Source: an uncultured bacterium (GTDB taxonomy: Bacteria; Edwardsbacteria; AC1; EtOH8). Taken from it: a stretch of 64,000 nt of DNA. Both the position numbers and the translations under genes were made by a program. The DNA is taken from NCBI GenBank assembly GCA_963780225.1, contig CAWAAX010000026.1, positions 13,403 through 77,402 of the forward strand, given 5' to 3'. The notes under the pieces are model-generated. The model made no database searches. It saw nothing but the letters and a program-made list of their open reading frames with translations, and was not told the origin of the DNA. Below, piece after piece: positions 1,120-31,115 of this stretch (position 1 is the stretch's first letter; each line of letters opens with the position of its first letter).

Positions 1120-1491
1120 CAAATGATTATCCCATCAGCTTCGGAGACAGGGAGAACGCTAGGTGCCAACCCCGGTTGTCGCGTTAAGAACCATCAGTGA
1201 GCATCGCAGTTGATGGCGGTTAATAGCTTGTCTGCGCCTGTTTGAGGGCTTGGCAAAAGACCGAGTTCAGACAAGCCCGCCGTCAGCGAGAAGCGCAGCG
1301 CCCGGATGGTTCTTTGCGACGAGCTTTCCTTCGATTAGTTAAGCACGATGTCATCTCAGGACATGTTTAAGTTCTTTTTCTGGGAGCCTGCCCTGAGTAT
1401 GCCTACTTGCCATGCAAACGAAAGGGGCGGTACAAAAAAGAAACGTCGTGCTGAGATGGGTGCTGTGCTTTACTGACGAAGTAAAGAACAT
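1120..1491. repeat. Copy A of a ~370-bp inverted repeat pair; noncoding, with several internal stem-loops. Its reverse complement is at 30713-31115
   Basis: I aligned 1120-1491 by eye against the reverse complement of 30713-31115. The core is about 90% identical, with a ~30-nt indel and divergent outer ends. Neither strand has a long ORF. Internal hairpins include GCTTGTCTG...CAGACAAGC and GGGCTTttgccAAGCCC. Confidence 0.85.
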
Positions 1492-1591
1492 ATATGAGAC
1501 AATATCGGTATTTTTACCTAACCAGCCATATTCCTTCTACTTTTCCGGAACAAGTCATAGTTACCCCAAATATAATTTAACAGACAACTCA

Positions 1592-2422
1592 ATGAACGAA
1601 ACCAGACAGACATCAACTTCCTCCTGCGGCTCCTGCTGCACCAAGCTGGTGCGGGTGGGCGTTAAACTGGGCAATAATGTGGTGCTGGAGGACATCAACC
1701 TGCACCTGCACTGCGGACAGCTGACGGCCATCGTCGGCCCCAACGGGGCCGGCAAGAGCACCCTGCTCAGGACCATTTTGGGCGAAGTTCCGCACACCGG
1801 GCATGTCCATTTTCTTGATTCGGGCCAGCAGCGCCGGGACAAGCCCTTCATCGGCTACGTGCCCCAGCGGCTGGAGTTCGACCCCTCGGCCCCGCTGACG
1901 GTGTCCGACCTGTTCGGCGCGGCCCTGCAAAAACGCCCGGCCTGGATGGGCCTGTCCCGCGGCCAGCGCAATATTGTAGAGGAGGCCCTGAACACCGCCG
2001 GGGCCGGGCACCTGCTGAACCGCAAGCTGGGACAGCTTTCGGGCGGCGAGCTGCAGCGGGTGATGCTGGCTTTGGCCTTGACCCCGCTGCCCGACCTGCT
2101 GCTTTTGGACGAGCCGGTCTCCGGGGTGGACATGGCCGGGGTGGACGCCTTCTATGAAATGGTCTCGCAGCTTCGGAAACGCTACCATCTGTCCATCATC
2201 CTGGTCACCCACGACCTGGCGGCGGTGGCCGGCTTCGCCGACCGGATGATATTCCTGAATAAAAAAATAATCGCCCAGGGCCCGCCGGCCCAGGTGCTGG
2301 GTCATCCCCTGGTCCAGCAGATCTTCGGGCGGCTGAAACCGGAGCCGAAGCAGGAAATCCCGGAAAATGCCGAACCGGTACCCCATGACTGCATCGCCTG
2401 CGAACTGGAGGCCAAGCCATGA
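1592..2422 (+). CDS. Metal (Zn/Mn-type) ABC transporter ATP-binding protein (ZnuC/MntB-like, ABC-3 system)
   Basis: Walker A GPNGAGKST, ABC signature LSGGELQRV and Walker B LLLLDEP are present. The N-terminus is Cys-rich (SSCGSCC). The stop overlaps the next gene by 4 bp. I place the start at ATG 1592, because the ORF-track start at 1412 falls inside the repeat. Confidence 0.85.
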   Translation: MNETRQTSTSSCGSCCTKLVRVGVKLGNNVVLEDINLHLHCGQLTAIVGPNGAGKSTLLRTILGEVPHTGHVHFLDSGQQRRDKPFIGYVPQRLEFDPSAPLTVSDLFGAALQKRPAWMGLSRGQRNIVEEALNTAGAGHLLNRKLGQLSGGELQRVMLALALTPLPDLLLLDEPVSGVDMAGVDAFYEMVSQLRKRYHLSIILVTHDLAAVAGFADRMIFLNKKIIAQGPPAQVLGHPLVQQIFGRLKPEPKQEIPENAEPVPHDCIACELEAKP

Positions 2423-3252
2423 TGAATTTTTGGCAGCAAATGATAGGGCTGCTGCCCTTTGAATGGGCAAAATTCGCCTTCATGCAGAACGCCCTGCTGG
2501 CGGCCCTGCTGGCCTCGCTGCTTTTGGGGGTGCTGGGCACCATGGTCATCAGCCGGCAGATGGCCTTCTTCTCCGATGCCATCGGGCACGCGGCCCTGAC
2601 CGGGGTGGCCATCGGCGCGCTGTTGGGGCTGGGCGACCCGCTGTGGGCCATGCTGATCTTCTCCGCCCTGCTGGCCCTGTCCTTCAGCTTCTTAAGGCAG
2701 CGCACCAAGGCCTCGGCCGACACCGTGATCGGGCTGATCATGTCCTTTGCCGTGGCTTTGGGCATAGTAATCCTTTCCCGGAGGGGCGGGTTCAGCCGTT
2801 ACTCCCAGTACCTGATCGGCGACATCCTGAGCGTGGGCCCGGCCGACATCGTCAAACTGCTGGTACTGCTTCTGGCGGTGGCTGGATTCTGGGTGTTCTA
2901 TTTCAACCAGATAATGCTGCTGAGCCTCAGCCCCTCGCTGGCCAAAAGCCGCCGGATCAACACCGGCCTGGCCGAGGCGGCCTTCTCGGTGATGACCGCT
3001 CTGGTGGTGACCGTGGCCATCCAGTGGGTGGGCCTGCTGGTGATCAACGCCCTGCTGATACTGCCGGCGGCCGCCGCCCGCAACCTGGCCGGCAACATGA
3101 GGCAGTACCTGTGGCTCTCGGCGGGTTTCGGCCTGGCGGCCGCGCTGACCGGGCTGATCGCCTCGTACTACTGGGCCACCGCCTCCGGCGCCACCATGGT
3201 GCTGGCGGCCATGGCGATCTACCTGGCGACCCTGGCGTTCAAAAGGAAGTAG
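2419..3252 (+). CDS. Metal ABC transporter permease (ZnuB/MntC-like, ABC-3 family)
   Basis: It is 277 aa and polytopic, is coupled to the upstream ATPase through an ATGA overlap, and has typical ABC-3 permease length and hydrophobicity. Confidence 0.8.
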   Translation: MMNFWQQMIGLLPFEWAKFAFMQNALLAALLASLLLGVLGTMVISRQMAFFSDAIGHAALTGVAIGALLGLGDPLWAMLIFSALLALSFSFLRQRTKASADTVIGLIMSFAVALGIVILSRRGGFSRYSQYLIGDILSVGPADIVKLLVLLLAVAGFWVFYFNQIMLLSLSPSLAKSRRINTGLAEAAFSVMTALVVTVAIQWVGLLVINALLILPAAAARNLAGNMRQYLWLSAGFGLAAALTGLIASYYWATASGATMVLAAMAIYLATLAFKRK

Positions 3253-3387
3253 CGTTCGGTTCATCTGAAAACACCACCGGATTAACCACGGAAGCACGGA
3301 ACAACTGAAGCCACGGAATAACTGAAATATTCCTCATTCAGTGTTTCAGTGGTAAAGGGAATATCATAAATATAATATTGGTAAACA

Positions 3388-4509
3388 ATGAAAAAAACAT
3401 TTTTCTCATTACTGGTCTTACTGCCGTTGCTCTGGTCCTCCGTCGCCCTGGCCACCCTTTAATGCGCCCAATGCCGGAAATGGATCACCGCCAAGGACAG
3501 TTACATCGAGCACGAGGGTAAGGTCTACTGCTCCCAAAAGTGCTTCGCCCAGGCCATGCCCAAGTGCGCCACCTGCGGAAAATCAATCGCCGACTGGCAA
3601 GGGACTGGCGGGCGGCTATGTCTATACCAAGGATAAATATTACTGTTCCGATGAATGCTTCCAAAAATCCCTGCCACTCTGCGCGTTCTGTAAAAAACCA
3701 ACCAAAGGCGGGCTGCGGTCTAACGAGGACCCCTCTAAAATCTACTGCTCCCAGGAATGTTATCAGACCACCCTGCCCAAATGCGCATTGTGCGGGACGG
3801 TCATGCAGTCCTGGACCGAGATCGAAGGCGCAAGAAATTCTGCGAAAGCTGCAAAAAACTTCCGGAATGCTTCAACTGCCAGAGGCCCGGGGCCGGCCGG
3901 GAGTCCAAGGACGGCCGCCGCTGGTGCGATTCCTGCATGGCGTTGGCGGTAATGGATAAAGCTGCGGCCCAGCAAATGTTCGAACAGATGCGCCAGGACA
4001 TCAAACAGCAGCTGGGAGTTCATACCGGAGACACCATCGCCTTTCATATGGTGGACGCCGACAGCCTGGCCCTTTTATTGGGGCACAAGAATTTTGCCGA
4101 GAGGGGTTTTTACCGTTATAATGTCCAATACACGGTGACAAAGAAGAAAGTAAAAAAAGTGACCCGGGAAATATTTGACATTTTCATCCTTTCCGGTCTC
4201 TCGCCTGCGAATTTCAGGGACGTGGCGGCCCATGAGCTGGCCCACGACATCAACTATCGTTATTTCCCCAAGGTCCAAGTCCAAAGGGAGGTGGAGGGCT
4301 TTGCCGAATATGTTTCAGCTTTGATGAACAAATACTGGGGCCAGGCCAAGGTCAACGAAAGCAAGATCCACAACCAGCAAAAGGAATACGCCGAGGCCTA
4401 CAAGTATTTTTTAAAGCTGGGAGAAAAGGGCGGACTGAATGCGGTGTGGGAACACATGGAACGGCAAAATCAAAATAAAAAAGCAAAAACAAAAAAAGAT
4501 CAAATGTGA
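3388..4509 (+). pseudogene. Disrupted gene: signal peptide, then four FCS/TRASH-like zinc-ribbon repeats (CxxC...YCSxxCF), then a C-terminal HExxH domain
   Basis: The signal peptide MKKTFFSLLVLLPLLWSSVALATL is followed by an in-frame TAA at 3460-3462. Repeat units KVYCSQKCF, KYYCSDECF, KIYCSQECY and KKFCESC follow. The frame goes from +1 to +2 near 3605 (a G-run) and back to +1 near 3830. The intact C-terminal ORF 3757-4509 carries AAHELAHD. Confidence 0.55.
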
Positions 4510-4522
4510 TCTAAAGAGCGTG

Positions 4523-5194
4523 ATGGTGCAAAACAATACTCGCTTAATTCTTGCATCCGCAGTTTGCTGTCTGCTGCTATCCTGCGGCAAGCCTGCCCAA
4601 CCCAAGGTATCCATGTGGGATAACTATGTTGATAGCGTTAAATACCGGATCCCGGAGAATGATTCCCTGGGCTACTTCAGCCTTTCTCCCGAGGGAAACA
4701 GGATCTGTGTGCTTTTCAAAAAAGGATCTCAATGGCACGTCATCATCAATGACAGACAATACGATACTTTTAAGGCAACCTTTAACGACAGTTTTGATCA
4801 AAAGCCAAAGGTGACAGTCAGCCCCGGAGGCCAAAGAGTAGGCCTGAGCTTTATCCGGAAAAAATCATGGCAGACCCGGTCCGAACTTCAGAAAAAAAGC
4901 AGTTCTTCTGTTGCCTCAACAGACACCAGCCAGTGGTATGTGCAGATAGACCAGAATATATTTGGCGGCTACGATGGCGATTTTGCCCCAAATATTATTT
5001 TCTCCCAAAGCGGCAGCACTTTCGGCTTCGTCTACAAGAAGGACGGCAAGTATTACGTGCAGGTGGGTGATACAACCTTCGGGCCTTATTTAAGGGCCGA
5101 TCTGGCGATCAACGAGAAAGAAGAAATTTACATTGCCTACATCAAAGAAGGTTATGCCAGCATCGAAAGGGTGGAGCAACTACCGGGCAGGTAA
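4523..5194 (+). CDS. Hypothetical lipoprotein
   Basis: ATG at 4523 followed by the lipobox-like LLLSCGK. No recognisable family. Confidence 0.55.
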   Translation: MVQNNTRLILASAVCCLLLSCGKPAQPKVSMWDNYVDSVKYRIPENDSLGYFSLSPEGNRICVLFKKGSQWHVIINDRQYDTFKATFNDSFDQKPKVTVSPGGQRVGLSFIRKKSWQTRSELQKKSSSSVASTDTSQWYVQIDQNIFGGYDGDFAPNIIFSQSGSTFGFVYKKDGKYYVQVGDTTFGPYLRADLAINEKEEIYIAYIKEGYASIERVEQLPGR

Positions 5195-5214
5195 ATCTCC
5201 AAGATAAGAAAACA

Positions 5215-5246
5215 GAAGAGCCCCGCCGTTGGCGGGGCTCTTCTGT
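5215..5246 (+). terminator. Rho-independent terminator for the 4523-5194 gene
   Basis: GC hairpin AGAGCCCCGCCgttgGCGGGGCTCT followed by a T-run. Confidence 0.6.
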
Positions 5247-5276
5247 TTGGGGGACAGGCCTCTATCTGTAAAAAAC

Positions 5277-5312
5277 AAAAGCCCCGCCATCGGCGGGACT
5301 TTTGAAACTGTG
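5277..5312 (-). terminator. Rho-independent terminator for the minus-strand micro-ORFs
   Basis: On the minus strand the hairpin AAAAGTCCCGCCGATGGCGGGGCTTTT is followed by a T-run. Confidence 0.5.
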
Positions 5313-5326
5313 TTAAGAAAACTCAG

Positions 5327-5368
5327 TTATTTCTTTTTCTTCTTGGCGGCTTTCTTCTTGGCTGGCAT
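5327..5368 (-). CDS. 13-aa lysine-rich micro-ORF (MPAKKKAAKKKKK)
   Basis: A GGAGGT Shine-Dalgarno sits 5 nt upstream of the ATG. I translated it by hand. Confidence 0.3.
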   Translation of the reverse strand: MPAKKKAAKKKKK

Positions 5369-5454
5369 GATTAAACCTCCTTTCTTACCGGAATTCCTCC
5401 GGTACTTAAAATTGTGGTTTGTTCTGTTAGCAAGCCAGATAATTTATGCCGATC

Positions 5455-5529
5455 TTACTTCTTTTTCTTTGCAACCTTCTTGACAGCCTTCTTCACGACC
5501 TTCTTGGCGGGTTTTTTTGCGCAAGCCAT
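5455..5529 (-). CDS. 24-aa lysine/alanine-rich micro-ORF (MACAKKPAKKVVKKAVKKVAKKKK)
   Basis: A GGAGGTG Shine-Dalgarno sits 6 nt upstream of the ATG. The composition matches the C-terminal tail of leuC at 48640-48807. Confidence 0.35.
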   Translation of the reverse strand: MACAKKPAKKVVKKAVKKVAKKKK

Positions 5530-5619
5530 TATTTTCACCTCCTTAAATTTAAAATATTAGAATCTTGTACTAATTGTGTATAAATATACAATATATTGTA
5601 TATTTGTCAAGAAAAAAAA

Positions 5620-5780
5620 TAAAAATATTTTTTGGTGGATAACTTTTATTACATTGCATAAAAATGGAATTATTGCAAAACCCTTTAAAATCAATAGTCT
5701 TAGAGTGTTTACAGATTATTTGTTTGCTGTAGATAAAAAAATATCCACAACACAATAGGTAGTGTTGTGGATAACTAAAT
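5620..5780. promoter_or_regulatory. AT-rich intergenic region with three DnaA-box-like 9-mers, one of them a perfect TTATCCACA
   Basis: GGTGGATAAC (~5633), ATATCCACA (~5744) and TGTGGATAA (~5768, perfect on the other strand) lie in a ~300-bp spacer of under 30% GC. Confidence 0.4.
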
Positions 5781-6007
5781 TTTGATTTTTCCAAAGATTT
5801 TTTTCAAAAAGTCCCAAGATCTTCAAGGGACAAGGGTTTTCAGGGAGGAGCTTCTAAAATATATTGTACAACCCGCATAAATACTATGGTTTTCAAAATT
5901 AAGCAAAAGAATTAAAATAAAAAACTTAAACGGCAAACATCATCGGTGCAAAAAATAAAACAGCCAAGAACCTGACGGGTCGAAAAGGATCTCCTGATTT
6001 TAAAGCA

Positions 6008-6802
6008 TCAATTATTATTGATGATCTCACGATGGGGGTAGGCCTGTCTTATTCCCCGTTCCAGCAGCAATTTTAAAATGTTTTCGTTCAGGTCGGAAAG
6101 GCTTTGCAGGTAAGCCTCTCCTTTGACCCATAAAAAAAGATCCAGTTTGGTGCCGCTTTCCCCGAAACCCTGTACTACCGTGAATGGATGAGGATCAGGC
6201 AAGGTGTGCTGATAACTGCGGGCTTCAGTTAAAATTATTTTCTTGACCGAAGCTAAATCAACGTCCGATCCCAGCCTAAAACTAAGACTAAGCCGCCGGG
6301 TCTTGTAGCGGGTAAGGTTTACTATTTTATTCTTGATCAGGTTTTCGTTGGGTATCCGGACGTAGAGGTTGTCGAAGGTCCGCAGCTTGGTGGACAGCAG
6401 GTCGATGGAGGTGACCGTGCCCTGTTGGCCCTCGAAGTCTATCACATCATCGATCTCGAAGGGCCGGTCCATCAGCAGGAAGAAGCCGGAGACGATGTTG
6501 GCCACCGAGGTCTGGGCGGCGAAACCCAAAGCCACCGACATGATGCCGGCCGCCGCCAGGATGGCGGTCAGCTTGACGTCAAAGATGTCCAGCACCGCCA
6601 CCAGCACCAGTATAATCACAGCATAATATACTACCTTGCCGATCATCATGGCGGTGTGCTTCTCCGATTTTTGGGCGGCGGCCTTCTCGGCCATCTTGGC
6701 CAGGGCCTTGGCGATGAAGAAACCGATGGCCATTGTGATCAGGCCTTTGACGGCCATGCCGGACTTGAGCCACTCGGGTAGTTGTTGGATGAATTCTTTC
6801 AT
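6008..6802 (-). CDS. Small-conductance mechanosensitive channel (MscS family)
   Basis: N-terminal TM helices and an MscS beta-domain (IDDVIDFEGQQGTVTSIDLLSTKLRTFDNLYVRIPN). I chose the start at internal Met 12, which has an AAGGAG RBS; the ORF track extends it to 6838. Confidence 0.8.
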   Translation of the reverse strand: MKEFIQQLPEWLKSGMAVKGLITMAIGFFIAKALAKMAEKAAAQKSEKHTAMMIGKVVYYAVIILVLVAVLDIFDVKLTAILAAAGIMSVALGFAAQTSVANIVSGFFLLMDRPFEIDDVIDFEGQQGTVTSIDLLSTKLRTFDNLYVRIPNENLIKNKIVNLTRYKTRRLSLSFRLGSDVDLASVKKIILTEARSYQHTLPDPHPFTVVQGFGESGTKLDLFLWVKGEAYLQSLSDLNENILKLLLERGIRQAYPHREIINNN

Positions 6803-6989
6803 GGGGGCTCCTTTTTTGCCACTAAGGCACAAAGGCACAAAGTGTAAATTATGTTGTTCGAAAGGAAATGTATTGTATGAGGCTATGGTTTCTTGTCACA
6901 AAAAATACTTTGAATTGAGCTGAAGGAATGCTAAGTTCCGCAGATTATTTCCCATTTCCCAGTTCCTATTTCCAATTTATTTATTTAGT

Positions 6990-7868
6990 CTACCGATGCA
7001 GTACCCTCTTGGCCAGGGCCGTGCCGCCGGCGCACCAATTCACCAGCCGGCTCCACAGGTCCTGCAGCCAGAACCAGGGGGAATCATGGTCGATTTTGTG
7101 CTTCAGGTCCCACAGGATGTCCGTAACATAGACCCCGCAGCGGCGCAGGGCGAAAAAGTCCGTTAGGTTGTTTTTTATGGGGGGCGAAAAACTGCAGGCC
7201 GAGAGATACCCGGCGTCAAGTGCTGCCTGCTTTACCGCTTCATTGTAAAGCCCGAAGGGGTAGGACAGGGTGGTCACCGGCAGGCCCAGGTTCTGTTCCA
7301 TCACTTTACGTGATCCCGCCAGCTCTTCTCTCAACTGCTCCGGACTTAAAGAACGCAGGTCCCGGTGGTTTTGGGTGTGGGAGCCGAACTCGATCCCGCA
7401 GGCCTGCATCTCCTTCATCTGTTCCCAGCTTAGGTGCCCAAACTTCAATCCGCCCCAGTTGATGTCCCAGTCATTCATTTTTCCTACGTAATCCGTGACC
7501 ACAAAGACGGTGGCGGTGAAGCCGTATTCCTTGAGCAATGGAAAGGCGTGCTGGTAAAGCCCGGCATAAGCGTCGTCAAAGGTCAGACAGAGGTATTTCT
7601 TCCCGCCGCAGTCTCCTTGTCGCATTAGTTCCACGGCCCGGGACAGGGTAACACTTTGGTAACCGTTCCGCTTGAAATAATCCAGATGCCCGGCAAAACG
7701 CTTGGGGGAGATCATGGTTCCGCCCAGCTCCAGCCGGGTATCCACCTTATGATAGGTCAGGATGGGAATGGATCCTTTGGCTGGCGGGCCGAAGCGCGCC
7801 TGCCAGAAAAAGTAGAGCAAAGCCCCGGCCAGGGCGAGTGACATTAGGAATATCATAAATATCTGCAT
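6990..7868 (-). CDS. Polysaccharide deacetylase family protein (NodB homology domain) with an N-terminal TM anchor
   Basis: NodB motif YLCLTFDDAYAGLY plus His-rich downstream motifs, and an N-terminal hydrophobic helix. Confidence 0.75.
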   Translation of the reverse strand: MQIFMIFLMSLALAGALLYFFWQARFGPPAKGSIPILTYHKVDTRLELGGTMISPKRFAGHLDYFKRNGYQSVTLSRAVELMRQGDCGGKKYLCLTFDDAYAGLYQHAFPLLKEYGFTATVFVVTDYVGKMNDWDINWGGLKFGHLSWEQMKEMQACGIEFGSHTQNHRDLRSLSPEQLREELAGSRKVMEQNLGLPVTTLSYPFGLYNEAVKQAALDAGYLSACSFSPPIKNNLTDFFALRRCGVYVTDILWDLKHKIDHDSPWFWLQDLWSRLVNWCAGGTALAKRVLHR

Positions 7869-8069
7869 TGTCTGAATTTTACCGCCTAAAGGCTCAGGTT
7901 GTCAACCAAAATATGATCTTGTTTTTTTGGTAAAACTCTTGACTTTTTATGCTCTTTGTGAAATAATTCACTTTCTGTGCTCCAAATATACCAATGGTCA
8001 TTATTTTTATTCTGACCGCGGTATTTAAGGGGCCATTCGTTCATTCTATCAAAGATACTATTTTATTTT

Positions 8070-8135
8070 GCCACAAAAAGCACAAGGGACACAAAATCGG
8101 AAAGAATATTTGTGTCTTGGTGTCTTTGTGGCACG
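8070..8135. promoter_or_regulatory. Imperfect palindrome upstream of the hydrogenase cluster; a second copy lies at 27176-27238
   Basis: GCCACAAAAAGCACAAGGGACACAAA, a 14-nt centre, then TTTGTGTCTTGGTGTCTTTGTGGC. A candidate -35 TTGACT is at 7943. Confidence 0.4.
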
Positions 8136-8169
8136 CAATCATTTCAATCATACTTAAGGCAATAAAAAT

Positions 8170-9255
8170 ATGCCGGAAAAGACGGTTTATTCGCTGGCCA
8201 AGGTCCAGGTGCCGGAGCTGATCGCCAAACTGCTGAAGTCCCAGAACGAGGTCTGGGCTCCGGTGAAGGGCGAGGGAGGCGACACCTTTTTGTCGCAGAT
8301 CGACTCGGCCAAGCAGATAGCCCCTGAATACGTCAACGGATTCCTGGGGGCCAAGCGCTATGTGTTTCCGCAGCTGGAGGAGCTGTTCCGCTTCAAGAAG
8401 GGCAAGAACGGCACTACTCTGGAAACGGAATCCGGCCAACCCCGGGCGGTGATCTGGGGGATAAGGCCCTGCGACATGTCGGCGGTTAACTATTTCGACA
8501 GCTTCTTTGGTCAGGGCGCCAAGTCCGGCCCGGACTGGAAATCGGGCGATCCTCTGCCGGACCCGTTATACGAAAAGAGGCGGGAGCGGGCGGTGTTCAT
8601 CACCCTGGCCTGCAACCAGGCCGGGCCGAAATGCTTCTGCGTCTGCACCGATTCCGGTCCGTTCCTCTCCAAGGGTTTTGACATCCAGTTGACCGACCTG
8701 GGCACCTATTATCTGGTTGAGGTGGGGAGCCCCAAGGGAGATGAGTTCGTCAAGGAGTTCAAGACCCTGTTCGGCACCGGGAACGAGAACGATGTCAAGC
8801 TCCGCCGGAAGCTGGAAACTGAGGCCGAGAAGACTTTCCAGCAGCCGGTAAGTTTCTTTGCCAAGGCCATGCGCAAGCTGGACGGCGGCAAGGTGGACCA
8901 GAAGTTCTGGGAGAAGGTGGCCGGATACTGCATCGGCTGCGGCGGCTGCATCTACGTCTGCCCCATGTGCAGCTGCTTTGACGTGGACGACAAGATGGAT
9001 TCCGATACCGAGGGCCTGCGCTACCGGGCTTGGGACACCTGCGACTTTGCCGGGTTCACCCGCGAGGTCTCGGGACACAACCCCCGGGCCTCAAGGGCCG
9101 ACCGCCGGAAACGCTGGTTCTACCACAAGCTGTCCATGGACTATCTGGAAAAGAACCCGGTGATCGGCTGCGTGGGCTGCGGCCGCTGCGTGGTCACCTG
9201 CCCCGGCGAGGTGGACATGGCCACGGTGGTGAGGTGGATGCGGAAGGTCGAGTGA
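8170..9255 (+). CDS. 4Fe-4S cluster protein, sulfhydrogenase beta (HydB) / anaerobic sulfite reductase AsrA-like
   Basis: Three Cys clusters (CNQAGPKCFCVC, CIGCGGCIYVCPMCSCFD, CVGCGRCVVTCPG). It pairs with the downstream PyrK-like flavoprotein. Confidence 0.7.
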   Translation: MPEKTVYSLAKVQVPELIAKLLKSQNEVWAPVKGEGGDTFLSQIDSAKQIAPEYVNGFLGAKRYVFPQLEELFRFKKGKNGTTLETESGQPRAVIWGIRPCDMSAVNYFDSFFGQGAKSGPDWKSGDPLPDPLYEKRRERAVFITLACNQAGPKCFCVCTDSGPFLSKGFDIQLTDLGTYYLVEVGSPKGDEFVKEFKTLFGTGNENDVKLRRKLETEAEKTFQQPVSFFAKAMRKLDGGKVDQKFWEKVAGYCIGCGGCIYVCPMCSCFDVDDKMDSDTEGLRYRAWDTCDFAGFTREVSGHNPRASRADRRKRWFYHKLSMDYLEKNPVIGCVGCGRCVVTCPGEVDMATVVRWMRKVE

Positions 9256-9258
9256 CCT

Positions 9259-9866
9259 GGGTTGCCCACTAAAACCCACGAAAAGGACGAAAAATAATTC
9301 ATGGTTTCGATCGGGGTTGCCCACTAAAACCCACGAAAACATTTACCATTTAAAATTCAAGGTTGCCCACGAAAAACACTAAAAGGCACGGAACATTTAA
9401 ATTTTACGATGGCTTGAAAAAACGCGGATAAAGTATATGAAGGTCGAATTATTATATAAAGATGAGAGCTATGCCATAATAGGCGCATGTTTCAATGTGT
9501 ATAAAAATATGGGGAGCGGATTTTTAGAGCCAGTTTATCAGGAATGCCTGGAAATTGAATTCGAAAGACAAAAAATTCCATTTGAGCCGCAGAAAGAACT
9601 TGCCTTAAAATACCAGGATAGAACATTAAAGCAAAAGTATAAGCCGGACTTTGTTTGTTACGGCAAAATAGTGGTGGAGATAAAAGCGGTAGAAAAGATC
9701 ATTGATGATCACAGGTCACAAATGTTGAATTATCTTAACGCCACCGGTTTTAAATTGGGCTTGCTGGTAAATTTTGGCCACCACCCCAGGATGGAAAACG
9801 AAAGATTTATCCTTTAAATAAAAATCCCGCTGAGCAGAAAAAATATTTTTTCGTGTATTTAGTGGG
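9259..9866. mobile_element. Small low-GC cassette carrying a GxxExxY gene, bounded by inverted TTGCCCACTAAA motifs
   Basis: GGTTGCCCACTAAAACCCACGAAAA occurs as direct repeats at 9260 and 9314, with a variant at 9361. The inverted copy TTTAGTGGGCAA is at ~9853. The cassette is about 40% GC between ~62% GC genes. Confidence 0.4.
9437..9817 (+). CDS. GxxExxY family protein (PD-(D/E)XK-like small protein)
   Basis: 126 aa with ...GSGFLEPVYQECLEIEF... and KPDFVCYGKIVVEIKAVEKI, the typical GxxExxY architecture. Low GC. Confidence 0.75.
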   Translation: MKVELLYKDESYAIIGACFNVYKNMGSGFLEPVYQECLEIEFERQKIPFEPQKELALKYQDRTLKQKYKPDFVCYGKIVVEIKAVEKIIDDHRSQMLNYLNATGFKLGLLVNFGHHPRMENERFIL

Positions 9867-11427: not shown

Positions 11428-12882
11428 GTGTTACCAATTTTACTATTCACCATGCTGTTGCTGCCCTTTGCCGGGGCGCTGGTCTCGCAGTGGCTGCCGG
11501 AGAAGAGGCAGGACGGCTTTGCCGCAGTCATCGTCAGCCTGGTGACCGCGGCCTCGCTGTGGGCGGTATTCCTGGGGCTGGGCAAAAGCGTTCATTCCAA
11601 CGTCCTGCCTTGGTGGCCGTGGCTGCCTGAGGGCACTGAAGTGATGGGCCTCCATCTGGACCCGCTGTCCATAGTCCTGCTGCTGGTGACCACCATCATC
11701 GGACTGGCGGTGACCTTCTACGCCCGGGACTACCTTACCCCCCAGAACAAGTATCATCCCATTACAGGCGGCAAGAAACGCTTTTACCTGTGGCACCTGT
11801 TGTTCGTGGGCGCCATGGTGGGGGTGGCCCTGTCCCCCAACTTCCTCCAGATGTTCATCTTCTGGGAGCTGACCACCATCTGCTCCTGGGCCCTGATCTC
11901 CTACTACCACGACAGCGAGTCGCTGGAGGCCGGGTTCGAGGCGCTGATCAAGACCTTCTTCGGGGGCATCTTCTTCCTGATCGCCCTGATAGTGCTGTTC
12001 GTCAACACCGGCAGTTTCGGCTTCGACGCCATCAATCTTTTGACCCCCCAGCTGAAGACGGTGGTCTTCATCCTGTTCCTGATAGCGGCCTGGGCCAAGT
12101 CATCCCAGATAGTCTTCTTCGCCTGGCTGCCCAACGCCATGGCCGCGCCCACCCCGGTCTCCTGCTACCTGCACGCGGCCGCCATGGTCAAGGCCGGAGT
12201 TTATCTGATGGCCCGGGTGGCCATCTCCACCGTGGGCTTCTCCTACGGGCTGGGTCTTTTGGTGGCGGTGTTTGCGGTGTTCACCATGCTGGCCGCGCTG
12301 TTCCTGTTCTTCTTCCAGACCGATCTTAAAAAATTCCTGGCCTATTCCACCATCGCCCACCTGGGATACATCTTCCTGGGCATAGGGCTGGGGGTGATGG
12401 GCAGCTACTACGGCTACCAGGGGGCCATCCTTCACATCATCTGCCACGCCCCGGCCAAGGCCCTGCTGTTCATCTGCGTGGGGAACATAGCCTACGCCAC
12501 CGGCACCCGCAACATGGACGAACTGGGCGGCCTGACCAAGACCATGCCGCTGACCTCGATCGCCTTCATCGTGGGAACTTTGGGCGTCACCGGCATCGCC
12601 CCGCTTTCCTGCTACTGGTCAAAACTTTTCCTGATGGAGGGCGTGATAGAGATGGGCGGCAAGACGGCCGTCTTCCTGATCATCCCCTTCGTGGCCGAGA
12701 TCATCATCGCCTTCGCCTGGTATTTCTTCATCGCCCACAAGGTGTTCTTCGGCGAGGCCTCGCCCCGGGTGAACCAGGCCCTTAAACTGCCCATGAACAC
12801 CAAGGTCATCCTGATCGTGCTGATGGTGCTGACCGTGATCGCCCCGCTGGTGGGTTTGCCGCTGGTGAAGTTGATACGGTAA
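11428..12882 (+). CDS. Complex I / Mrp antiporter-like membrane subunit (NuoM/N, MrpD, HyfD-like)
   Basis: 484 aa and polytopic, with the conserved proton-pumping core (WLPNAMAAPTPVSCYLHAAAMVKAGVYL). Confidence 0.8.
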   Translation: MLPILLFTMLLLPFAGALVSQWLPEKRQDGFAAVIVSLVTAASLWAVFLGLGKSVHSNVLPWWPWLPEGTEVMGLHLDPLSIVLLLVTTIIGLAVTFYARDYLTPQNKYHPITGGKKRFYLWHLLFVGAMVGVALSPNFLQMFIFWELTTICSWALISYYHDSESLEAGFEALIKTFFGGIFFLIALIVLFVNTGSFGFDAINLLTPQLKTVVFILFLIAAWAKSSQIVFFAWLPNAMAAPTPVSCYLHAAAMVKAGVYLMARVAISTVGFSYGLGLLVAVFAVFTMLAALFLFFFQTDLKKFLAYSTIAHLGYIFLGIGLGVMGSYYGYQGAILHIICHAPAKALLFICVGNIAYATGTRNMDELGGLTKTMPLTSIAFIVGTLGVTGIAPLSCYWSKLFLMEGVIEMGGKTAVFLIIPFVAEIIIAFAWYFFIAHKVFFGEASPRVNQALKLPMNTKVILIVLMVLTVIAPLVGLPLVKLIR

Positions 12883-12961
12883 GCCCGACCCCTCCCTTGA
12901 TCCCTCCCCGTTGCGGAGAGGGATAAGTTAGTTCGGTAAGGTAAACAAAAGAGGAGAGAGT

Positions 12962-18208: not shown

Positions 18209-19884
18209 CCAAACAGGAAATCCTCTCTTTACTAAAGGCCAAGCTGGGCACCGGATTCATCGCCCACACCGAGCCTATTCCCGACCAGCTGTGGGTGGAG
18301 GTCAAGCCCCAGGCCTCGGTCCAGGCCGTGGAGATACTGCACCGCACCACCAAGGCCCGCTACTTAGTGAGCGTGGGCTCGGACGAGCGGGAGCTAAAGA
18401 AGCGCTTCGGGGTCTACCACCTGTTCAGCTTTGACAAAGAACACTTCTTCGTCACCATCGACGTCTCGGCCGATCCCCACAAGCCGGTGCTGCCCTCCAT
18501 CACCAACGTCATCGCCGGGGCCAACTGGTCGGAGCGGGAGATCCGCGATCTGCTGGGCGTGCAGTTCGAGGGCCATCCCGATCCCCGGAGATTAGTTCTG
18601 GCCGATGACTGGCCGAACGAGGTCTATCCGCTGCGACGGGACTTTGACTACAGCTCCAAACCGCCCTCCAACCCGGAGAACGCCTATCCCTTCAAGGACA
18701 ACCCGCCCAACACCACGGTGGTGGCCATGGGGCCGTATTTCCCGGTCTTTGAAGAGGCCACTTACTTCCGGCTGTACGTCGAGGGCGAGAAGGTGGTGGA
18801 CGTGGACTACCGCGGATTTTACGCCCACCGGGGGATAGAAAAACTGGGCGACGCTTCGCTGACCTACAACCAGATACCCTTCATCGCCGAGCGGATCTGC
18901 GGCATCTGCGGCTTCGTCCACAACGTCTCCTTCTGCAAGCTGGTGGAGCACGCGGCCGGGATCAAGGTCCCGCGCCGGGCCGATTACATCCGGACCATCA
19001 TGCTGGAGCTGGAGCGCATCCATTCCCACGCCCTGTGGCTGGGGGTGGCCGGGCACATCATCGGCTTCGACACCGTGCTGATGCAGACCTGGCGGATGCG
19101 GGAGCCCATCATGTGGCTGTGCGAAAAACTGACCGGCAACCGCAAGACCTACGGCATGAACCTGATCGGCGGGGTGCGCCGGGATATCACCAAAGCCCAG
19201 GTGCCCGAGGTCCGCAAAAAGATCGACGCCATGGACAAGGAATGGCAGGCGGTGCTGGACGCCGTCAAGGATGATACCACATTAAGAATGAGGCTGGAGA
19301 AGGTGGGGATCCTCAACCGCGAGCAGAGCCACGAGTGGGCGGCGGTGGGCCCGGTGGCCCGGGCGGCCGACATCGACATGGACTCCCGCAAGGACCATCC
19401 CTACTGCGCCTACGACGCGGTGGACTTCAAGGTGATCACCGCCGACACCAACGATGTCTGGGGCCGGACCGTGGTCCGGATCCTGGAGACCATCGAATCG
19501 TTCAAGATCGTCCGCCAGTGTCTGGACGCTTTAATGGAACTGCCGGAGGGCGACATCATCACCGAGATCCGGGACGAGATCCCGGCCGGGCGGATAGCCA
19601 TCTCGGCTGTCGAAGCGCCCCGGGGCGAGGACGTCCACTTCCTGCTGACCGGCGGAGACAACCGGCCCTACCGCTGGCGGGTGCGGTGCCCAACATATCC
19701 CAACTTGCCCACCGTGCAGGTGATGGTCAAGGGCGAGCAGGTGGCCGACGTGCCGATCATCCTGGGCTCCATCGATCCCTGCTTCAGCTGCACCGAGCGG
19801 ATGGAGGTCTGCGACCTGTCAACAGGCAAGGTCAGGATCTACAGCCAGGAGGAACTGTTTAACTGGACCGCCAAGCGCAGTTAG
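18205..19884 (+). CDS. hyfG: [NiFe]-hydrogenase large subunit, group 4, with fused NuoC-NuoD domains (HyfG/HycE-like)
   Basis: 559 aa. The N-terminus is NuoC-like (WSEREIRDLLGVQFEGHPD). It carries the proximal Ni-binding motif RICGICGFVH and the distal motif DPCFSCTERMEV. Confidence 0.85.
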   Translation: MTKQEILSLLKAKLGTGFIAHTEPIPDQLWVEVKPQASVQAVEILHRTTKARYLVSVGSDERELKKRFGVYHLFSFDKEHFFVTIDVSADPHKPVLPSITNVIAGANWSEREIRDLLGVQFEGHPDPRRLVLADDWPNEVYPLRRDFDYSSKPPSNPENAYPFKDNPPNTTVVAMGPYFPVFEEATYFRLYVEGEKVVDVDYRGFYAHRGIEKLGDASLTYNQIPFIAERICGICGFVHNVSFCKLVEHAAGIKVPRRADYIRTIMLELERIHSHALWLGVAGHIIGFDTVLMQTWRMREPIMWLCEKLTGNRKTYGMNLIGGVRRDITKAQVPEVRKKIDAMDKEWQAVLDAVKDDTTLRMRLEKVGILNREQSHEWAAVGPVARAADIDMDSRKDHPYCAYDAVDFKVITADTNDVWGRTVVRILETIESFKIVRQCLDALMELPEGDIITEIRDEIPAGRIAISAVEAPRGEDVHFLLTGGDNRPYRWRVRCPTYPNLPTVQVMVKGEQVADVPIILGSIDPCFSCTERMEVCDLSTGKVRIYSQEELFNWTAKRS

Positions 19885-19942: not shown

Positions 19943-20329
19943 GTGATGACGATAAAGAATTTTGAAGATCTAAAAATATGGCAAGTAGCCAAACAGTTAA
20001 CAAAACAGGTTTATTCGGCAGTCAACTTACAGAAATATAACCGGGATTATTCACTGGTTGACCAGACAAGGCGGGCATCGGTTTCAATCATGGCCAATAT
20101 CGCTGAAGGTTTTGAAAGGGAGAACAACAAGGAGTTCATTCAATACTTGTATATTGCCAAAGGATCTTGCGGGGAGTTGAGGAGCCATTTGTGGATCGCT
20201 CAGGAATTGATGTTTCTGACCGAGGTTGAAGGTAAAACTTTAAGAGAAGAAGCTGCCGGGCTATCAATCATGATTGCAAAGTTGATAATGTACCTAAAAA
20301 CCTCGCCCATTAAGGGATTCAAACAGTAA
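19943..20329 (+). CDS. Four-helix-bundle protein (23S rRNA intervening-sequence protein / Avd-like family), copy 1
   Basis: 128 aa with ..RDYSLVDQTRRASVSIMANIAEGFER..EFIQYLYIAKGSCGELRSHL... About 40% GC. It lies in the spacer between hyfG and the NuoH-like gene. Confidence 0.85.
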   Translation: MMTIKNFEDLKIWQVAKQLTKQVYSAVNLQKYNRDYSLVDQTRRASVSIMANIAEGFERENNKEFIQYLYIAKGSCGELRSHLWIAQELMFLTEVEGKTLREEAAGLSIMIAKLIMYLKTSPIKGFKQ

Positions 20330-21242: not shown

Positions 21243-21715
21243 AGTTTACAATTTACAGTTTAAAAGTTTGTTTGAATAACGCAAGGAGGTTTGTATGGGT
21301 ACGTTCAGAAAGTTTGAGGACATTACCGCTTGGCAAAAAGCGCGCGAGTTGACAAAGTTGGTTTACGAAATCACTAAGGACGGAAGTTTTTCAAAGGATT
21401 TTGGCCTGCGAGATCAAATAAGAAGAGCCGCTGTTTCTATGATGTCCAACATTGCAGAAGGGTTTGACAGGGGCGGCAGAAAAGAATTTATTCAGTTTTT
21501 ATCAATAGCCAAAGGCTCCACTGGCGAGGTCAAAAGCCAATTGTATATCGCATTGGACCAAAATTACATTACCAAAGATTTATTCGATAAAACATTTTCC
21601 TTGGCAGAGGAAGTCAATCGTTTGATCTTTAGTTTGATAAAGTACCTGGGAAATACTGAAATTAAGGGAATAAAATATAAAGTTAACTGATTACAATAAC
21701 TGTAAATTGTAAACA
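21243..21715. mobile_element. Four-helix-bundle gene cassette (copy 2), flanked by inverted repeats
   Basis: AGTTTACAATTTACAG at 21243-21258 and its inverse CTGTAAATTGTAAAC at 21701-21715 bracket the 4HB ORF. A related GTTTACAATTTACG lies upstream of copy 1 at 19921. Confidence 0.4.
21295..21690 (+). CDS. Four-helix-bundle protein (23S rRNA IVS/Avd-like), copy 2
   Basis: 131 aa with ..KDFGLRDQIRRAAVSMMSNIAEGFDR..EFIQFLSIAKGSTGEVKSQL.., a paralogue of copy 1. Confidence 0.85.
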   Translation: MGTFRKFEDITAWQKARELTKLVYEITKDGSFSKDFGLRDQIRRAAVSMMSNIAEGFDRGGRKEFIQFLSIAKGSTGEVKSQLYIALDQNYITKDLFDKTFSLAEEVNRLIFSLIKYLGNTEIKGIKYKVN

Positions 21716-22387: not shown

Positions 22388-22750
22388 GTGAGTATGGAAT
22401 TGAAATTCGAGAAACTGGAAGTATGGCGGATATCGCTGGAATGCATAGATAAGGTCTATGCGCTTTTGGAAAAATATCCCCGGTCCGAAGAATATATCCT
22501 AAAACAGCAAGGCAAGCGCTCCATAACCTCGGTCTCTCTGAACATTGCCGAAGGCAGCTGCAAGCACACCCAAAGGGAATTTGCCTATTTTGTAAATATT
22601 TCCATAGGCTCCCTGGTGGAAACCCTGGCCAATCTGAAAATAGGTCTGCAAAGAAAATACATCACTGACGCAGACTTTAAAGGCATTGAGCCCTTGCTGG
22701 ATAAAATGTATTTCAAGCTGATGGCTCTGGAAAAGGCCCTGCGGAAATAG
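22388..22750 (+). CDS. Four-helix-bundle protein (23S rRNA IVS/Avd-like), copy 3 (more diverged)
   Basis: 120 aa with ..KRSITSVSLNIAEGSCKHTQREFAYFVNISIGSLVETLANL... Low GC. Confidence 0.8.
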   Translation: MSMELKFEKLEVWRISLECIDKVYALLEKYPRSEEYILKQQGKRSITSVSLNIAEGSCKHTQREFAYFVNISIGSLVETLANLKIGLQRKYITDADFKGIEPLLDKMYFKLMALEKALRK

Positions 22751-25897: not shown

Positions 25898-26015
25898 CTA
25901 CGGCAAGGTGGACCCCTCCCTTGATCCCTCCCCGAAACGGAGAGGGAAAAGGTGTGAAATGGCCCGGTAGCACGAAATAAATCCAAATAAAACCAATATA
26001 CAATGGACAGATGAT

Positions 26016-28667: not shown

Positions 28668-28705
28668 AGTGATCCTAATATCCCGACCAATAACATAAAG
28701 ATGAT

Positions 28706-30493
28706 ATGAAACAGACCTTTACCATTTGCCCCCATTGCGGCTGCGGCTGCGGCCTTTATCTGGTTCAGCAGGATGGCCGGACCGGAGGAGTGACCGCCAG
28801 CCAGGAACACTATTTTTCGGCCGGGCAGCTTTGCGCCCGGGGCTGGACCGGTTATCAGTTGTTATGGTCGCCGCTCCGGATAAAGACCCCGCTCTACAAG
28901 AAGAACGGCGGGCTGGCTCCCATCGGCTACGACAAGGGGCTGGAGGCCGCGGCCAAGAAGCTCAGATCCATCAAGGAAAAGCACGGCCCCCAGAGCATCG
29001 GGGTCATCGCCTCCTCCCGGCTGACGGTGGAGGAAGCCCAGGCCCTGCGCTCGTTCGCCAAAGACATTCTGGAAACCCCGAATTGCGACAGCGCCGCCCG
29101 GCTTGGGTACCTGCCGATGGAATTCCCGAAAACAGCCGCCACCACTGACATTGCCGGAGCCGACCTGATCCTGGTGCTGGGCGCAAACCTGATGGAAGAG
29201 AACCCCATGCTGGGGGCCAGGGTGGTCTCGGCCTGCAAGCCTGAGGCCGACCGGCCCTATCAGTCGGCCGACCTGAACCACGTCATCGCCGGCAAGCCGG
29301 CCCGGCTGGCGGTGATGGACAGCCGCAAAAGCGCGCTGGCCGGTGCGGCGGAATTGTTCCTGAAGACCGTTCCCGGCAATGAGGCCGGGGCGCTGCTGGC
29401 CCTGCTTAAAGTATTGATCGAAAAATACCAGATGGAATCCAAGGATCCGGCCTTCCGCAAGGTCAAGGAAGCCTTGGCCAAGATGACCTGGGAGAACCTG
29501 CTGTCCAACACCGGGCTGGTGCTGCCGGGCCTGGAGCAGCTGGGGGCCATGATCGCCTCCGCCAAGGCTCCGATGTTGATCTTCGGCCGCAGCCTGTTCA
29601 CCGGCCACGATGCGGCGGCGGCCCGCTCGGCCCTGGCCGGCCTGTCGCTGCTTCTGCCGGAAAAACTTTCGGTGCTTCAGGCCGCCGCCGCCGCCAACGA
29701 CTGGGGGTGCGCCCGGATCCTGCATCCGGACAAGGGCCAAGGCTATCTGGAGATGATGGAATCATTAACCTCCGGGAAACTAAAAGCCCTGGTGCTGGTG
29801 GGCGAGGACCCCCTGAAGACGCTGGGCGGAAAAGAGGGGGTTTCCCAGGCCCTGGCCCAGGCCGAGCTGGTGGTGGCCTTCGATCATTTTGTCTCCGAGA
29901 GCCATCAGTACGCCGAAGCGGTATTCCCGCTGGCCCTGTCCTTTGAAAAGGAAGGCTCGTTCTGCAACCTGGACGGTAAAAGGCAGAAATTCGAGCAGGC
30001 GCTCAAGCCGGAATTTGAGATCAAATCCCTGGAGGATTCCTTGAAGGCCATGGCATCAGTGATCGGCGGAAAACTGGATCCCAAGGATGAACTTACCCAG
30101 CCGGCCAAGGCCGGGTGGGATGCGGCCTTCGATCTGTCCAAAGCGGCTCCCCAGGGCTTTGTGCTGGAACTGGGCACGGCCTATCCCCATCTTTACGGGG
30201 ACGACCAGCTGACCTTCAACAGCTATCACCTGACCCGCGAATTTGCAGGCAACTACGTGGAACTGCATCCCGATGACATCAAGGAACTGGGGGTCAGGGC
30301 GGGATGGAAGATCAATGTCACTTCAGCTGCCGGAAGCCTGGTGGCCACGGCCCGGGCCAATCCCGATCTGGTGAAAAAGACCGCCTTCATGCCGGTCCAC
30401 TTCGGCGGCAACCTGCTGGCCCCGGCCAAGCCCAACCACCACCTGAAGACCCCGCAGCTGAGGGGCATCGCGGTCAAGATAGAGAAGACCTGA
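28706..30493 (+). CDS. Molybdopterin-oxidoreductase family protein, FdhF (formate dehydrogenase H)-like, apparently without the catalytic Cys/Sec
   Basis: The N-terminal 4Fe-4S motif (CPHCGCGCG...LCARGW) aligns with FdhF as far as KTPL and IKEKHGPQSIG. At the position of FdhF's VCH/VUH the sequence reads NCDSAARLGY. At 595 aa it is shorter than FdhF (715 aa). Confidence 0.7.
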   Translation: MKQTFTICPHCGCGCGLYLVQQDGRTGGVTASQEHYFSAGQLCARGWTGYQLLWSPLRIKTPLYKKNGGLAPIGYDKGLEAAAKKLRSIKEKHGPQSIGVIASSRLTVEEAQALRSFAKDILETPNCDSAARLGYLPMEFPKTAATTDIAGADLILVLGANLMEENPMLGARVVSACKPEADRPYQSADLNHVIAGKPARLAVMDSRKSALAGAAELFLKTVPGNEAGALLALLKVLIEKYQMESKDPAFRKVKEALAKMTWENLLSNTGLVLPGLEQLGAMIASAKAPMLIFGRSLFTGHDAAAARSALAGLSLLLPEKLSVLQAAAAANDWGCARILHPDKGQGYLEMMESLTSGKLKALVLVGEDPLKTLGGKEGVSQALAQAELVVAFDHFVSESHQYAEAVFPLALSFEKEGSFCNLDGKRQKFEQALKPEFEIKSLEDSLKAMASVIGGKLDPKDELTQPAKAGWDAAFDLSKAAPQGFVLELGTAYPHLYGDDQLTFNSYHLTREFAGNYVELHPDDIKELGVRAGWKINVTSAAGSLVATARANPDLVKKTAFMPVHFGGNLLAPAKPNHHLKTPQLRGIAVKIEKT

Positions 30494-30712
30494 GAGATAG
30501 TTTGAAACTGACTTCCGGTAACGGACAATAATCATCCCAACCATCGTTCGATCATGGTGCGGGCAGCTGCAAAGGCAGGCCTGTTCGCACCGTTTCTATA
30601 CCCCAAAGGGAACCAGGTATTTTTCCTGGTTGACATGAGGGCTTATTTGTATTATCCTTATGGGTCGTAACGATAAGATGGTGTACCAAGGAAACATGGA
30701 TTTCACCCAGGT

Positions 30713-31115
30713 ATGTTCTTTACTTCGTCAGTAAAGCACAGCACCCATCTCAGCACGGCGTTTCTTTTTTGTGCCGCCCCTTTCGTTTGCATGGCAAGGA
30801 GGCATACTCAGGGCAGGCTCCCAGAAAAAGAACTTAAACATGTCCTGAGATGACATCGTGCTTAGCTAATCGAAGGAAAGCTCGTCGCAAAATACTATCC
30901 GGGCCACGCTTACGCTAAAGCTTCAGCGGGCCCGCGTTGCGCTTCTCGCTGACGGCGGGCTTGTCTGAACTCGGGCTTTTGCCAAGCCCTCAAACAGGCG
31001 CAGACAAGCTTTTAACCGCCGTCAACTGCGATGCTCACTGATAGTATTTAACGCGACAACCAGGGTTGGTCCCGGTTGATCAACGAATTCCCCGAGATAA
31101 TTGGATAATCATTTG
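30713..31115. repeat. Copy B of the ~370-bp inverted repeat (reverse complement of 1120-1491), with a ~30-nt insertion
   Basis: See copy A. It ends 41 bp upstream of gatE. Confidence 0.85.

Follow-up and report, generated by a model that had tools for sequence, protein, structure and literature searches.

Oppositely oriented repeats around a hydrogenase cluster of an Edwardsbacteria genome: probable copies of a MITE family with a candidate structured RNA as cargo

The DNA considered here is a 64,000-nucleotide stretch of an uncultured Edwardsbacteria genome (assembly GCA_963780225.1, contig CAWAAX010000026.1, positions 13,403 to 77,402 of the forward strand; called the window below, always at its full length) in which two copies of a non-coding repeat lie some 29 kb apart and in opposite orientation. 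Copy A (1124-1563, plus strand, ~440 bp) is situated between a gene of the AcrB family (acrB-like, 111-992) upstream and znuC/znuB downstream (the znuC-like gene at 1592-2422). Copy B (30648-31111, minus strand, ~464 bp) is situated between a Mo-oxidoreductase gene (28706-30493) and gatE (31156-33120), both on the plus strand. Domain annotation identifies the DNA between them as a group-4 [NiFe]-hydrogenase/complex-I-like cluster, interspersed with small PF05635 and PD-(D/E)XK genes, and a domain search, which was not exhaustive, finds no transposase or integrase domain in its main open reading frames (ORFs); on both points the first-pass annotation of the window is upheld. That annotation offered three readings of the repeats: substrates for inverting the 29-kb segment, the ends of one large non-autonomous element, or copies of an unknown structured non-coding RNA. 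Each arm is probably a copy in its own right, in opposite orientation to the other, of a non-autonomous DNA transposon: a miniature inverted-repeat transposable element (MITE), abundant in TA06/Edwardsbacteria-type bacteria. Of the three readings it is the structured RNA that is supported, as the content of the element.

A repeat search of the 64 kb finds exactly two long inverted pairs: 1300-1492 with 30712-30904 (193 nt, 96% identity) and 1166-1301 with 30934-31069 (136 nt, 94% identity). Alignment makes a single repeat of the two pairs; in copy B, but not in copy A, a 31-nt hairpin is inserted between them. With a covariance model of the core, these are the only two sites found in the 64 kb (E = 1e-41 and 5e-29; the next best match has E = 0.08), and the resemblance of the two copies is far beyond chance. 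The repeats are thus as real as first reported, and their core is where it was said to be; the full homologous unit is longer, running from the terminal repeat at 1124 (31111 in copy B) to a diverged tail at ~1563 (30648), and includes one inner stretch, between CAAATGATTATCC and CCAACCC, over which copies A and B are only ~45% identical.

Read from its 5' end, copy A consists of a terminal inverted repeat, TGATTATCCCATCAGCTTCGG (1124-1144; three mismatches to the consensus TGATTATCCAATCAGCTCAGG, at the homology boundary of 65 copies), a first domain with the sequence of a rod-like RNA (helices P1 to P5; 1174-1326, matched by the covariance model with 167 bits), a second domain in a long form, delimited by alignment to short-form copies (1327-1491), and a tail (1492-1563) that contains a degenerate 3' terminal repeat, CCGGAACAAGTCATAG (1545-1560), and resembles the family tail ...CTTTCTACTTTTCCTGAGCAAGTTAGATAGTCA and the tail of L040, the positional orthologue of copy A in a related contig. 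The alignment with L040 extends to ...CAAGTCATAGTTA; the 3' end being degenerate, its coordinate is approximate. In the long form of domain 2, which is also found at three other loci (L063, L088 and L075), the family hairpin GUUCUUUUUCU ... AAAAAAGAAAC is enlarged by an outer helix and a bigger loop. Copy B, on the minus strand, has the same parts: a 5' terminal repeat identified by its match (31091-31111); domain 1 including the insertion (30880-31061; 119 bits); a long-form domain 2 that is 96% identical to that of copy A (30712-30879); and a 3' end, ...GGATAATACA, placed by eye from the sequence. Its P1' strand, GCGACGAGC, is assigned to 30888-30880 by alignment, because the model misplaces the 3' end across the insertion. 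The insertion itself, the optional hairpin GCGGGCCCGCUGAAGCUUUAGCGUAAGCGUG (30905-30935, minus strand), sits in the 3' bulge beside P2; hairpin insertions of its type occur, often enlarged further, in many family members.

How widespread is the element? The metagenome scan used a pattern of two invariant blocks, AGTGAGCATCGCAG N60-90 CGAGAAGC, and yielded 83 loci, ~75 of them real copies, of which at least 45 are on separate contigs of one sediment metagenome. Many of the matches are at contig ends, as is expected of an element that is an assembly-breaking repeat. Among species-representative genomes the same pair of blocks has 15 matches in a single metagenome-assembled genome (MAG), UBP2_UBA5202 (at least 15 copies), one contig of which also bears the orthologue of copy B; an Edwardsbacteria MAG and a Gammaproteobacteria MAG have two matches each, a contig with the label Alphaproteobacteria holds one full copy, and three further matches are due to chance. 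Counting copies had been proposed in the first-pass annotation, with many copies genome-wide as the sign of a MITE, and that is how the count came out, in agreement with the terminal repeats and target-site duplications described below. The genes around the copies are unrelated from one copy to the next, the orientation of the element relative to its neighbors is unbiased, and clustering of the flanking ORFs brings out no recurrent neighboring protein, be it a transposase, TnpB or a reverse transcriptase. A phage or plasmid origin was considered and rejected: neither collection contains a BLAST match, and scans of viral contigs gave chance matches only (model-checked); a 24-nt match to the terminal repeat within a phage ORF (L119) was judged a coincidence. 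No account of an element of this kind came up in the literature searched.

The canonical copy opens with the 5' terminal inverted repeat TGATTATCCAATCAGCTCAGG and a leader of ~40 nt; there follow the rod-shaped RNA domain (150 nt, into which as many as three optional hairpins may be inserted), a U-tract with a pyrimidine/purine hairpin after it, and a tail of ~100 nt, at the end of which is the 3' repeat CCTGAGCAAGTTAGATAGTCA. Full units range from 318 to 463 bp and have no coding capacity: the only recurrent "ORFs" are artefacts that span the conserved sequence, and the insertion lengths (23, 31 and more nt) are not divisible by three. Homology among the copies starts at ...AAATGATTATCC and stops at ...GATAGTCA, and these ends are mutually reverse-complementary. 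The start, (A)AATGATTATCC, is ~62 nt ahead of the first helix, and the end, ...CCTGAGCAAGTTAGATAGTCA, is ~100 nt past the repeat as first reported. The terminal inverted repeats are 21-25 bp long with TG...CA termini (the family end pair can be written as TGNTTATCCAAT...ATTGGATAANCA); the 5' end, TGATTATCCAATCAGCTCAGG, agrees at 16 of 21 positions with the 3' end when the latter is reverse-complemented, TGACTATCTAACTTGCTCAGG, and 29 copies retain both ends. Exact flanking direct repeats of at least 7 nt accompany 14 of these 29 copies, as against 1.6% of mismatched flank pairs; these target-site duplications are 7-12 bp long, AT-rich and different for each copy.

The clearest single case is an empty site within the window, at 5898-6010. 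Locus L080 is collinear with window positions 2621-9246 except for ~630 nt of extra DNA at this place (745 nt, as against 112 nt in the window), which consists of an outer short MITE, with the same terminal repeats and no RNA core, and a copy of the RNA-core element inserted inside it, each with its own duplication. Similarly, L068 bears a copy that L079 is without. Base-exact excision footprints are precluded by the divergence of the intergenic regions. (The short MITE belongs to a second family, ~190-225 bp long, with an interior ...TATCCGCAGATTTCACAGATT... and terminal repeats like those of the RNA-core element, for which it serves as an insertion target; it is seen at L080 3473-4046 and at L094 4416-4640.)

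These observations also bear on a different view of the repeats, namely that they are two paralogous, ordinary chromosomal small-RNA genes whose "terminal repeats" are nothing other than the closing helix of an RNA. The terminal repeats would indeed pair in an RNA, the covariation set out below is strong, and relatives of the gamma type (also below) resemble free-standing genes with a terminator. Against this stand the direct repeats of variable sequence that flank about half of the copies, the nested insertion with its empty site, the second family that has the same ends and does without the RNA, and the presence of at least 15 copies in unrelated contexts in one MAG, all of which make the small-RNA-gene explanation improbable.

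Two facts weigh against the transposon interpretation. An autonomous element, or a transposase gene bearing the family ends, was not found in ~650 kb of related sequence, in which only the short MITE family turned up; and neither of the window copies has a clear target-site duplication. The degenerate 3' ends and the lack of a recognizable duplication at the window copies fit the age of these copies, of which copy B is common to three relatives. If the MITE interpretation is right, then a transposase acting in trans would move the elements by way of their shared ends, and the interior would be a cargo, transcribed and under selection as RNA, akin to the free-standing, terminator-ended small-RNA genes of a Gammaproteobacteria MAG.

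Positional orthologues are available for both window copies: L040 for copy A, and L001, L003 and L093 for copy B. In all of them domain 2 has the short canonical form, and the apical part and the P3' strand are unlike those of the window copies. Copies A and B concur where the orthologues differ, yet the P2 type, the leader and the tail stay copy-specific. Derived states that are common to A and B but not to their orthologues point to patchy gene conversion between the two copies, and such conversion in this genome is the simplest reading; it also accounts for the likeness of the arms (94-96%), which is above that of typical family members. Domain 2 of copy B (30712-30879), long where the orthologues are short, is on this reading a converted tract, and in this weaker form the first-pass idea of recombination between the copies holds.

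Is the arrangement an invertible switch, in which recombination between the arms flips the 29-kb hydrogenase segment? The arms are inverted, longer than 330 bp, 94-96% identical, and exchange sequence; moreover, synteny with L040 breaks to the left of copy A, exactly at the MITE, with a divergent lpxC upstream of the element where the window has its AcrB-family gene. Nevertheless, a switch is very improbable. The domain search, not an exhaustive one, finds no recombinase nearby. The junction at copy B, with the order Mo-oxidoreductase, element (minus strand), gatE, is retained unchanged in L001, L003 and L093, and no contig has an acrB-element-Mo-oxidoreductase (reverse-complemented) junction. 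The L040 break does not join what an A x B inversion would join, and dozens of further copies exist elsewhere in both orientations. Comparison of the relatives' junctions and contigs gives no evidence of reciprocal exchange between copies A and B. Inversion, as first suggested, is without a visible isomer.

The companion suggestion, that the two copies delimit a transposon of 29 kb, composite or non-autonomous, carrying the hydrogenase cluster, draws on the fact that inverted copies flank a coherent group of genes. It too is very improbable: each copy is complete, with its own pair of ends; gene order runs on unchanged across copy B into gatE-gatD in the relatives; the domain search finds no transposase inside; and no duplication surrounds the 29-kb unit. 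The bracketing of the hydrogenase cluster does not mark out a special unit either. Two copies per 64 kb is about the background density, and the flanking of the 29-kb segment is incidental, a coincidence of two insertions. The further thought that transcripts of the znuC and gatE leaders might regulate one another by antisense pairing suffers from the same ubiquity: since copies lie in both orientations to their neighbors, such cross-talk would be unspecific.

The interior of the element has the hallmarks of a structured RNA. The rod, ~150 nt, is built of P1 (GUCGC/GCGAC), P2 (10 bp), an irregular helix formed by the invariant strands AGUGAGCAUCGCAG and CGAGAAGCGCA, P3 (11 bp), P4 (9 bp; GCTTGTCTG/CAGACAAGC) and an apical P5 (GGGC...GCCC) flanked by the invariant UGUUUGAGG and CGAGUUC. 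P4 and P5 are stem-loops that had been picked out at the outset, and both co-vary in other copies. Compared with shuffled controls, the predicted folding is strong (z-scores of the minimum free energy, MFE, of -4.5 for copy A and -6.6 for copy B). When 102 distinct copies are aligned to the model, 92% of the cells are paired, as against 29-49% when partners are slid by 1-3 columns; changes on both sides are found in 34 of 44 pairs; and the covariation score is 0.18, versus 0.02-0.05 for slid partners, with none of 500 shuffles reaching any of the five measures. Three double compensatory changes already separate the P2 helices of copies A and B (AAGAACCAUC/GAUGGUUCUU versus AAAUACUAUC/GAUAGUAUUU), and a third common version of P2 has tandem G·A in place of two pairs. 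The hairpin insertions are confined to three fixed places, which is variation of the structured-RNA kind. A leader hairpin co-varies, by eye, in one subfamily only.

In P3-P5, the helices that are free of insertions, G·U-type outnumber A·C-type combinations by 72 to 16, which suggests that the RNA is read from the sense strand (plus for copy A, minus for copy B). This strand bias is also pertinent to the proposal that the conserved fold works as DNA, in the form of a cruciform, a single-strand hairpin or H-DNA, for example in transposition. A sequence that folds as a rod hairpin is a palindrome in DNA as well, and the U-tract and pyrimidine tracts constitute a mirror repeat, as H-DNA requires. 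But besides the excess of G·U on one strand, the asymmetric invariant loops are kept across phyla while the stems change, the tandem G·A of P2 replace Watson-Crick pairs, and all three tracts of the triple helix considered below are on one strand; function at the level of DNA is accordingly unlikely.

Covariation thus supports the view that the interior is under selection as RNA and represents a candidate RNA class without an Rfam family. No Rfam model matches, be it in the window as a whole at gathering thresholds or in either copy with E as high as 10; permissive E-value scans of eight other loci likewise give no Rfam match, and ARAGORN finds no tRNA or tmRNA in the window. The suspicion of an unknown structured RNA, for which an Rfam check had been recommended, comes out strengthened by a conserved, covarying fold. 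Some reservations apply: kinship among the copies inflates the covariation counts, so that independent events are overstated; the model-fitted alignment is unreliable in P1 and P2 of insertion-bearing copies, copy B of the window included; and no promoter is recognizable. P1 followed by the U-tract might be taken for an intrinsic terminator, but a spacer of 4-5 nt between the stem and the U-run disfavors this.

The module is not confined to the MITE. At six loci (from other sediment or saline metagenomes and from the Gammaproteobacteria MAG), referred to here as the gamma type, all of the stems are different and the loops are unchanged; five are matched by the model with E = 1e-16 to 1e-19 and the sixth, the partial L047, with 4e-11, and every stem is compensated. 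These copies lack recognizable terminal repeats; a GCGGCG...CGCCGC UUUC terminator closes them and is, like the excess of G·U, an indirect sign of sense-strand transcription. Some of the loci have a second, more diverged copy, placed head-to-head. Tandem or paired copies of the module are seen at L085 846-1182, L025 1114-1425 and L098 6224-6654; those of L085 are a tandem dimer, 186 nt apart, adjoining an RNase P RNA gene, and the pairs of the gamma type are head-to-head diverged paralogues. The candidate RNA module is present in at least two phyla, and its occurrence outside the MITE suggests that the RNA is older and more widely distributed than the TA06 transposon that bears it.

What might such a cargo do? 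The order of segments after the rod is GAGC-U5CU4-GG-UUCU4CUUGUU-loop-A5GA4GAAC (the 60-nt module with the U-tract and hairpin is GAGCUUUUUCUUUUGGUUCUUUUCUUGUUGGCGGCACAAAAAGAAAAGAACA). A hairpin arises from pairing of the purine strand with the second of the two pyrimidine strands; MFE folds leave the first U-tract without a partner. Among 50 parsed copies, 46 have a U-tract, T(a)CT(b), whose a and b are those of the purine tract, A(a)GA(b); the classes represented are (6,5), (5,4) and (3,4). The register is parallel: U5CU4 goes with A5GA4, U6CU5 with A6GA5, U5CU5 with A5GA5 and, in the gamma type, U3CU4 with A3GA4; a diverged paralogue has a truncated CUUUUG with GAAAAG. Beyond the A-tract the hairpin co-varies in the normal way (CUGAC/GUCAG versus CCUUC/GAAGG). 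The correspondence suggests, with chances a little short of even, that the U-tract takes part in a U·A-U/C+·G-C triple helix like those of ENE and MALAT1. The first U-tract (U5CU4 or U6CU5) would then occupy the major groove of the UUCU4CUU/A5GA4GAA hairpin. Such a triple helix would block 3'-exonucleases and make for a long-lived rod RNA, whose invariant loops would bind a partner; that the cargo is a self-contained RNA stability module is a proposal about as tentative as the triple helix itself.

Several considerations count against the triple helix. The correlation of tract lengths comes from only about five independent sequence classes, four of which are also compatible with the U-tract pairing in another, antiparallel way. 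In the window copies, domain 2 is remodelled into the longer hairpin, and the canonical first U-tract is lost. The most far-reaching formulation, that the MITE cargo is a bacterial counterpart of the ENE (a rod RNA with a triplex, constituting an undescribed class that spans TA06/Edwardsbacteria and Gammaproteobacteria, captured by a transposon and present in dozens of copies per TA06 genome), is correspondingly doubtful.

A few other features of the window deserve mention. A stand-alone hairpin, CCGCTGAAGC...GCGTAAGCGG, lies directly after the acrB stop codon (1036-1092, plus strand); a pattern search finds five matches to the motif, as against 0.41 expected. The same frame recurs near the end of the window (63860-63890) and as the frame of the 30905-30935 insertion, and in other copies of the element the corresponding insertion is enlarged by nested hairpins; these hairpins may be a separate tiny repeat family. 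Another hairpin, GACCCCTCCCTTGATCCCTCCCCG...CGGAGAGGGA, occurs twice (12875-12927 and 25899-25951), in each case at the 3' end of an antiporter-like gene, and a hairpin resembling it, CCCTCTCC...GGAGAGGG, substitutes for part of domain 2 in L074. In the hydrogenase large-subunit region there is a direct repeat of 300 nt (16890-17189 and 18203-18502; 98% identity, spacing 1313 bp), where two overlapping ORFs (16892-18208 and 17800-19884) each have Complex1_30kDa, NiFeSe_Hases and Complex1_49kDa domains: either a recent tandem duplication that truncated the first copy or an assembly artefact.

Three genes for PF05635 proteins (23S rRNA intervening-sequence protein/four-helix bundle; 19943-20329, 21295-21690 and 22388-22750) are located between hydrogenase/complex-I subunit genes. 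A PDDEXK_3 gene lies upstream (9437-9817), and the slot that separates gatE from gatD is occupied by a gene for a YhcG nuclease (33318-34220). Equivalent slots in relatives hold an NTase/HEPN pair (L003) or, between gatE and gatD, a bAvd-like gene (L005). These small genes in operon slots look like a turnover of selfish or defence-like genes. The GatD/GatE amidotransferase (GatE, 31156-33120; GatD, 34454-35839) is of archaeal type in this bacterium. The hint of an archaeal origin that it gives is ruled out by its homologues, which are bacterial: close relatives of GatE are widespread in TA06, Edwardsbacteria and Bacteroidota MAGs, and by these homologues the window belongs with candidate division TA06/Edwardsbacteria-type bacteria. 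An exact-match look-up of the GatE and ZnuC proteins of the window returned no record.

For the annotation of genomes of this kind the consequences are practical: the hydrogenase cluster is neither a mobile nor an invertible unit, and the repeats should be masked as members of a MITE family. The element accounts for broken contigs and for local losses of synteny in assemblies of TA06/Edwardsbacteria, shows concerted evolution by gene conversion among dispersed copies, and provides ~100 natural variants of a candidate RNA class that is absent from Rfam, with conserved loops that imply a specific binding partner. If the triple helix exists, the pyrimidine-pyrimidine-purine module would be a major-groove triple helix of a kind that is unusual in bacteria outside riboswitches and introns, and one could think of using it as a compact RNA-stabilizing part in bacterial engineering.

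How does the element compare with systems already known? As abundant, intergenic, structured repeats, the copies bring to mind REP/REPIN-RAYT systems and the IS200/IS605-derived elements (PATEs, omega-RNA), and a faint Y1-transposase-like ORF is found near the copy-B orthologue in L001. Those elements are without terminal inverted repeats or target-site duplications; because the MITE family has both, the IS200/IS605 and REP types are excluded. Neither TnpB nor IscB nor RAYT recurs beside the copies in the clustering of flanking ORFs, and the Rfam HEARO and IS605-related models have no match. The rod architecture recalls 6S RNA (E. coli ssrS), in which the motifs GUGAGCAU, CGAGAAGC and UGCGACGA follow in the same order. 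The motifs pair differently in 6S RNA, however, and the element, unlike it, is multi-copy and mobile; the Rfam 6S, 6S-Flavo and Bacteroidales-1 models match no copy at E up to 5-10, and a search of the E. coli ssrS locus with the family's own covariance model is empty up to E = 10. The resemblance is treated as chance.

Triple-helix RNA stability elements of the ENE/MALAT1 type, which are also found in transposable-element RNAs of plants and fungi (PMC12501189, PMC7583470), offer the nearest comparison for the second domain. Both have one C within a U-rich tract, another pyrimidine strand besides, and a purine strand that is rich in A and has a single G; tract lengths co-vary, and there is an association with mobile elements. 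The composition U5CU4 is also that of U-rich motif 1 of MALAT1. The differences are equally evident: in the ENE, a U-rich internal loop clamps a 3' tail, whereas here the Hoogsteen strand, a 2-nt linker, the Watson-Crick strand, a loop and the purine strand would follow one another in one hairpin, in which the purine tract need not be the 3' end of the RNA, and the host is a bacterium.

The closest parallels to the element as a whole are the Correia/NEMIS elements of Neisseria, the ERIC/IRU elements of enterobacteria, and RUP and BOX of Streptococcus, which are MITEs that fold into long RNA hairpins. Like them, the element lies between genes in many copies, is shorter than 500 bp, encodes no protein, and has terminal inverted repeats as well as target-site duplications; mobilization in trans, which for the present family is inferred, and the formation of stable hairpins upon transcription are further traits in common. 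Unlike them, it is conserved in its interior too, with compensatory changes and invariant asymmetric loops; the interiors of typical MITEs are not known to be under such selection. Moreover, its RNA module is also found outside the MITE, in another phylum and with wholly different stems. The MITE family is new, and the RNA module moderately novel.

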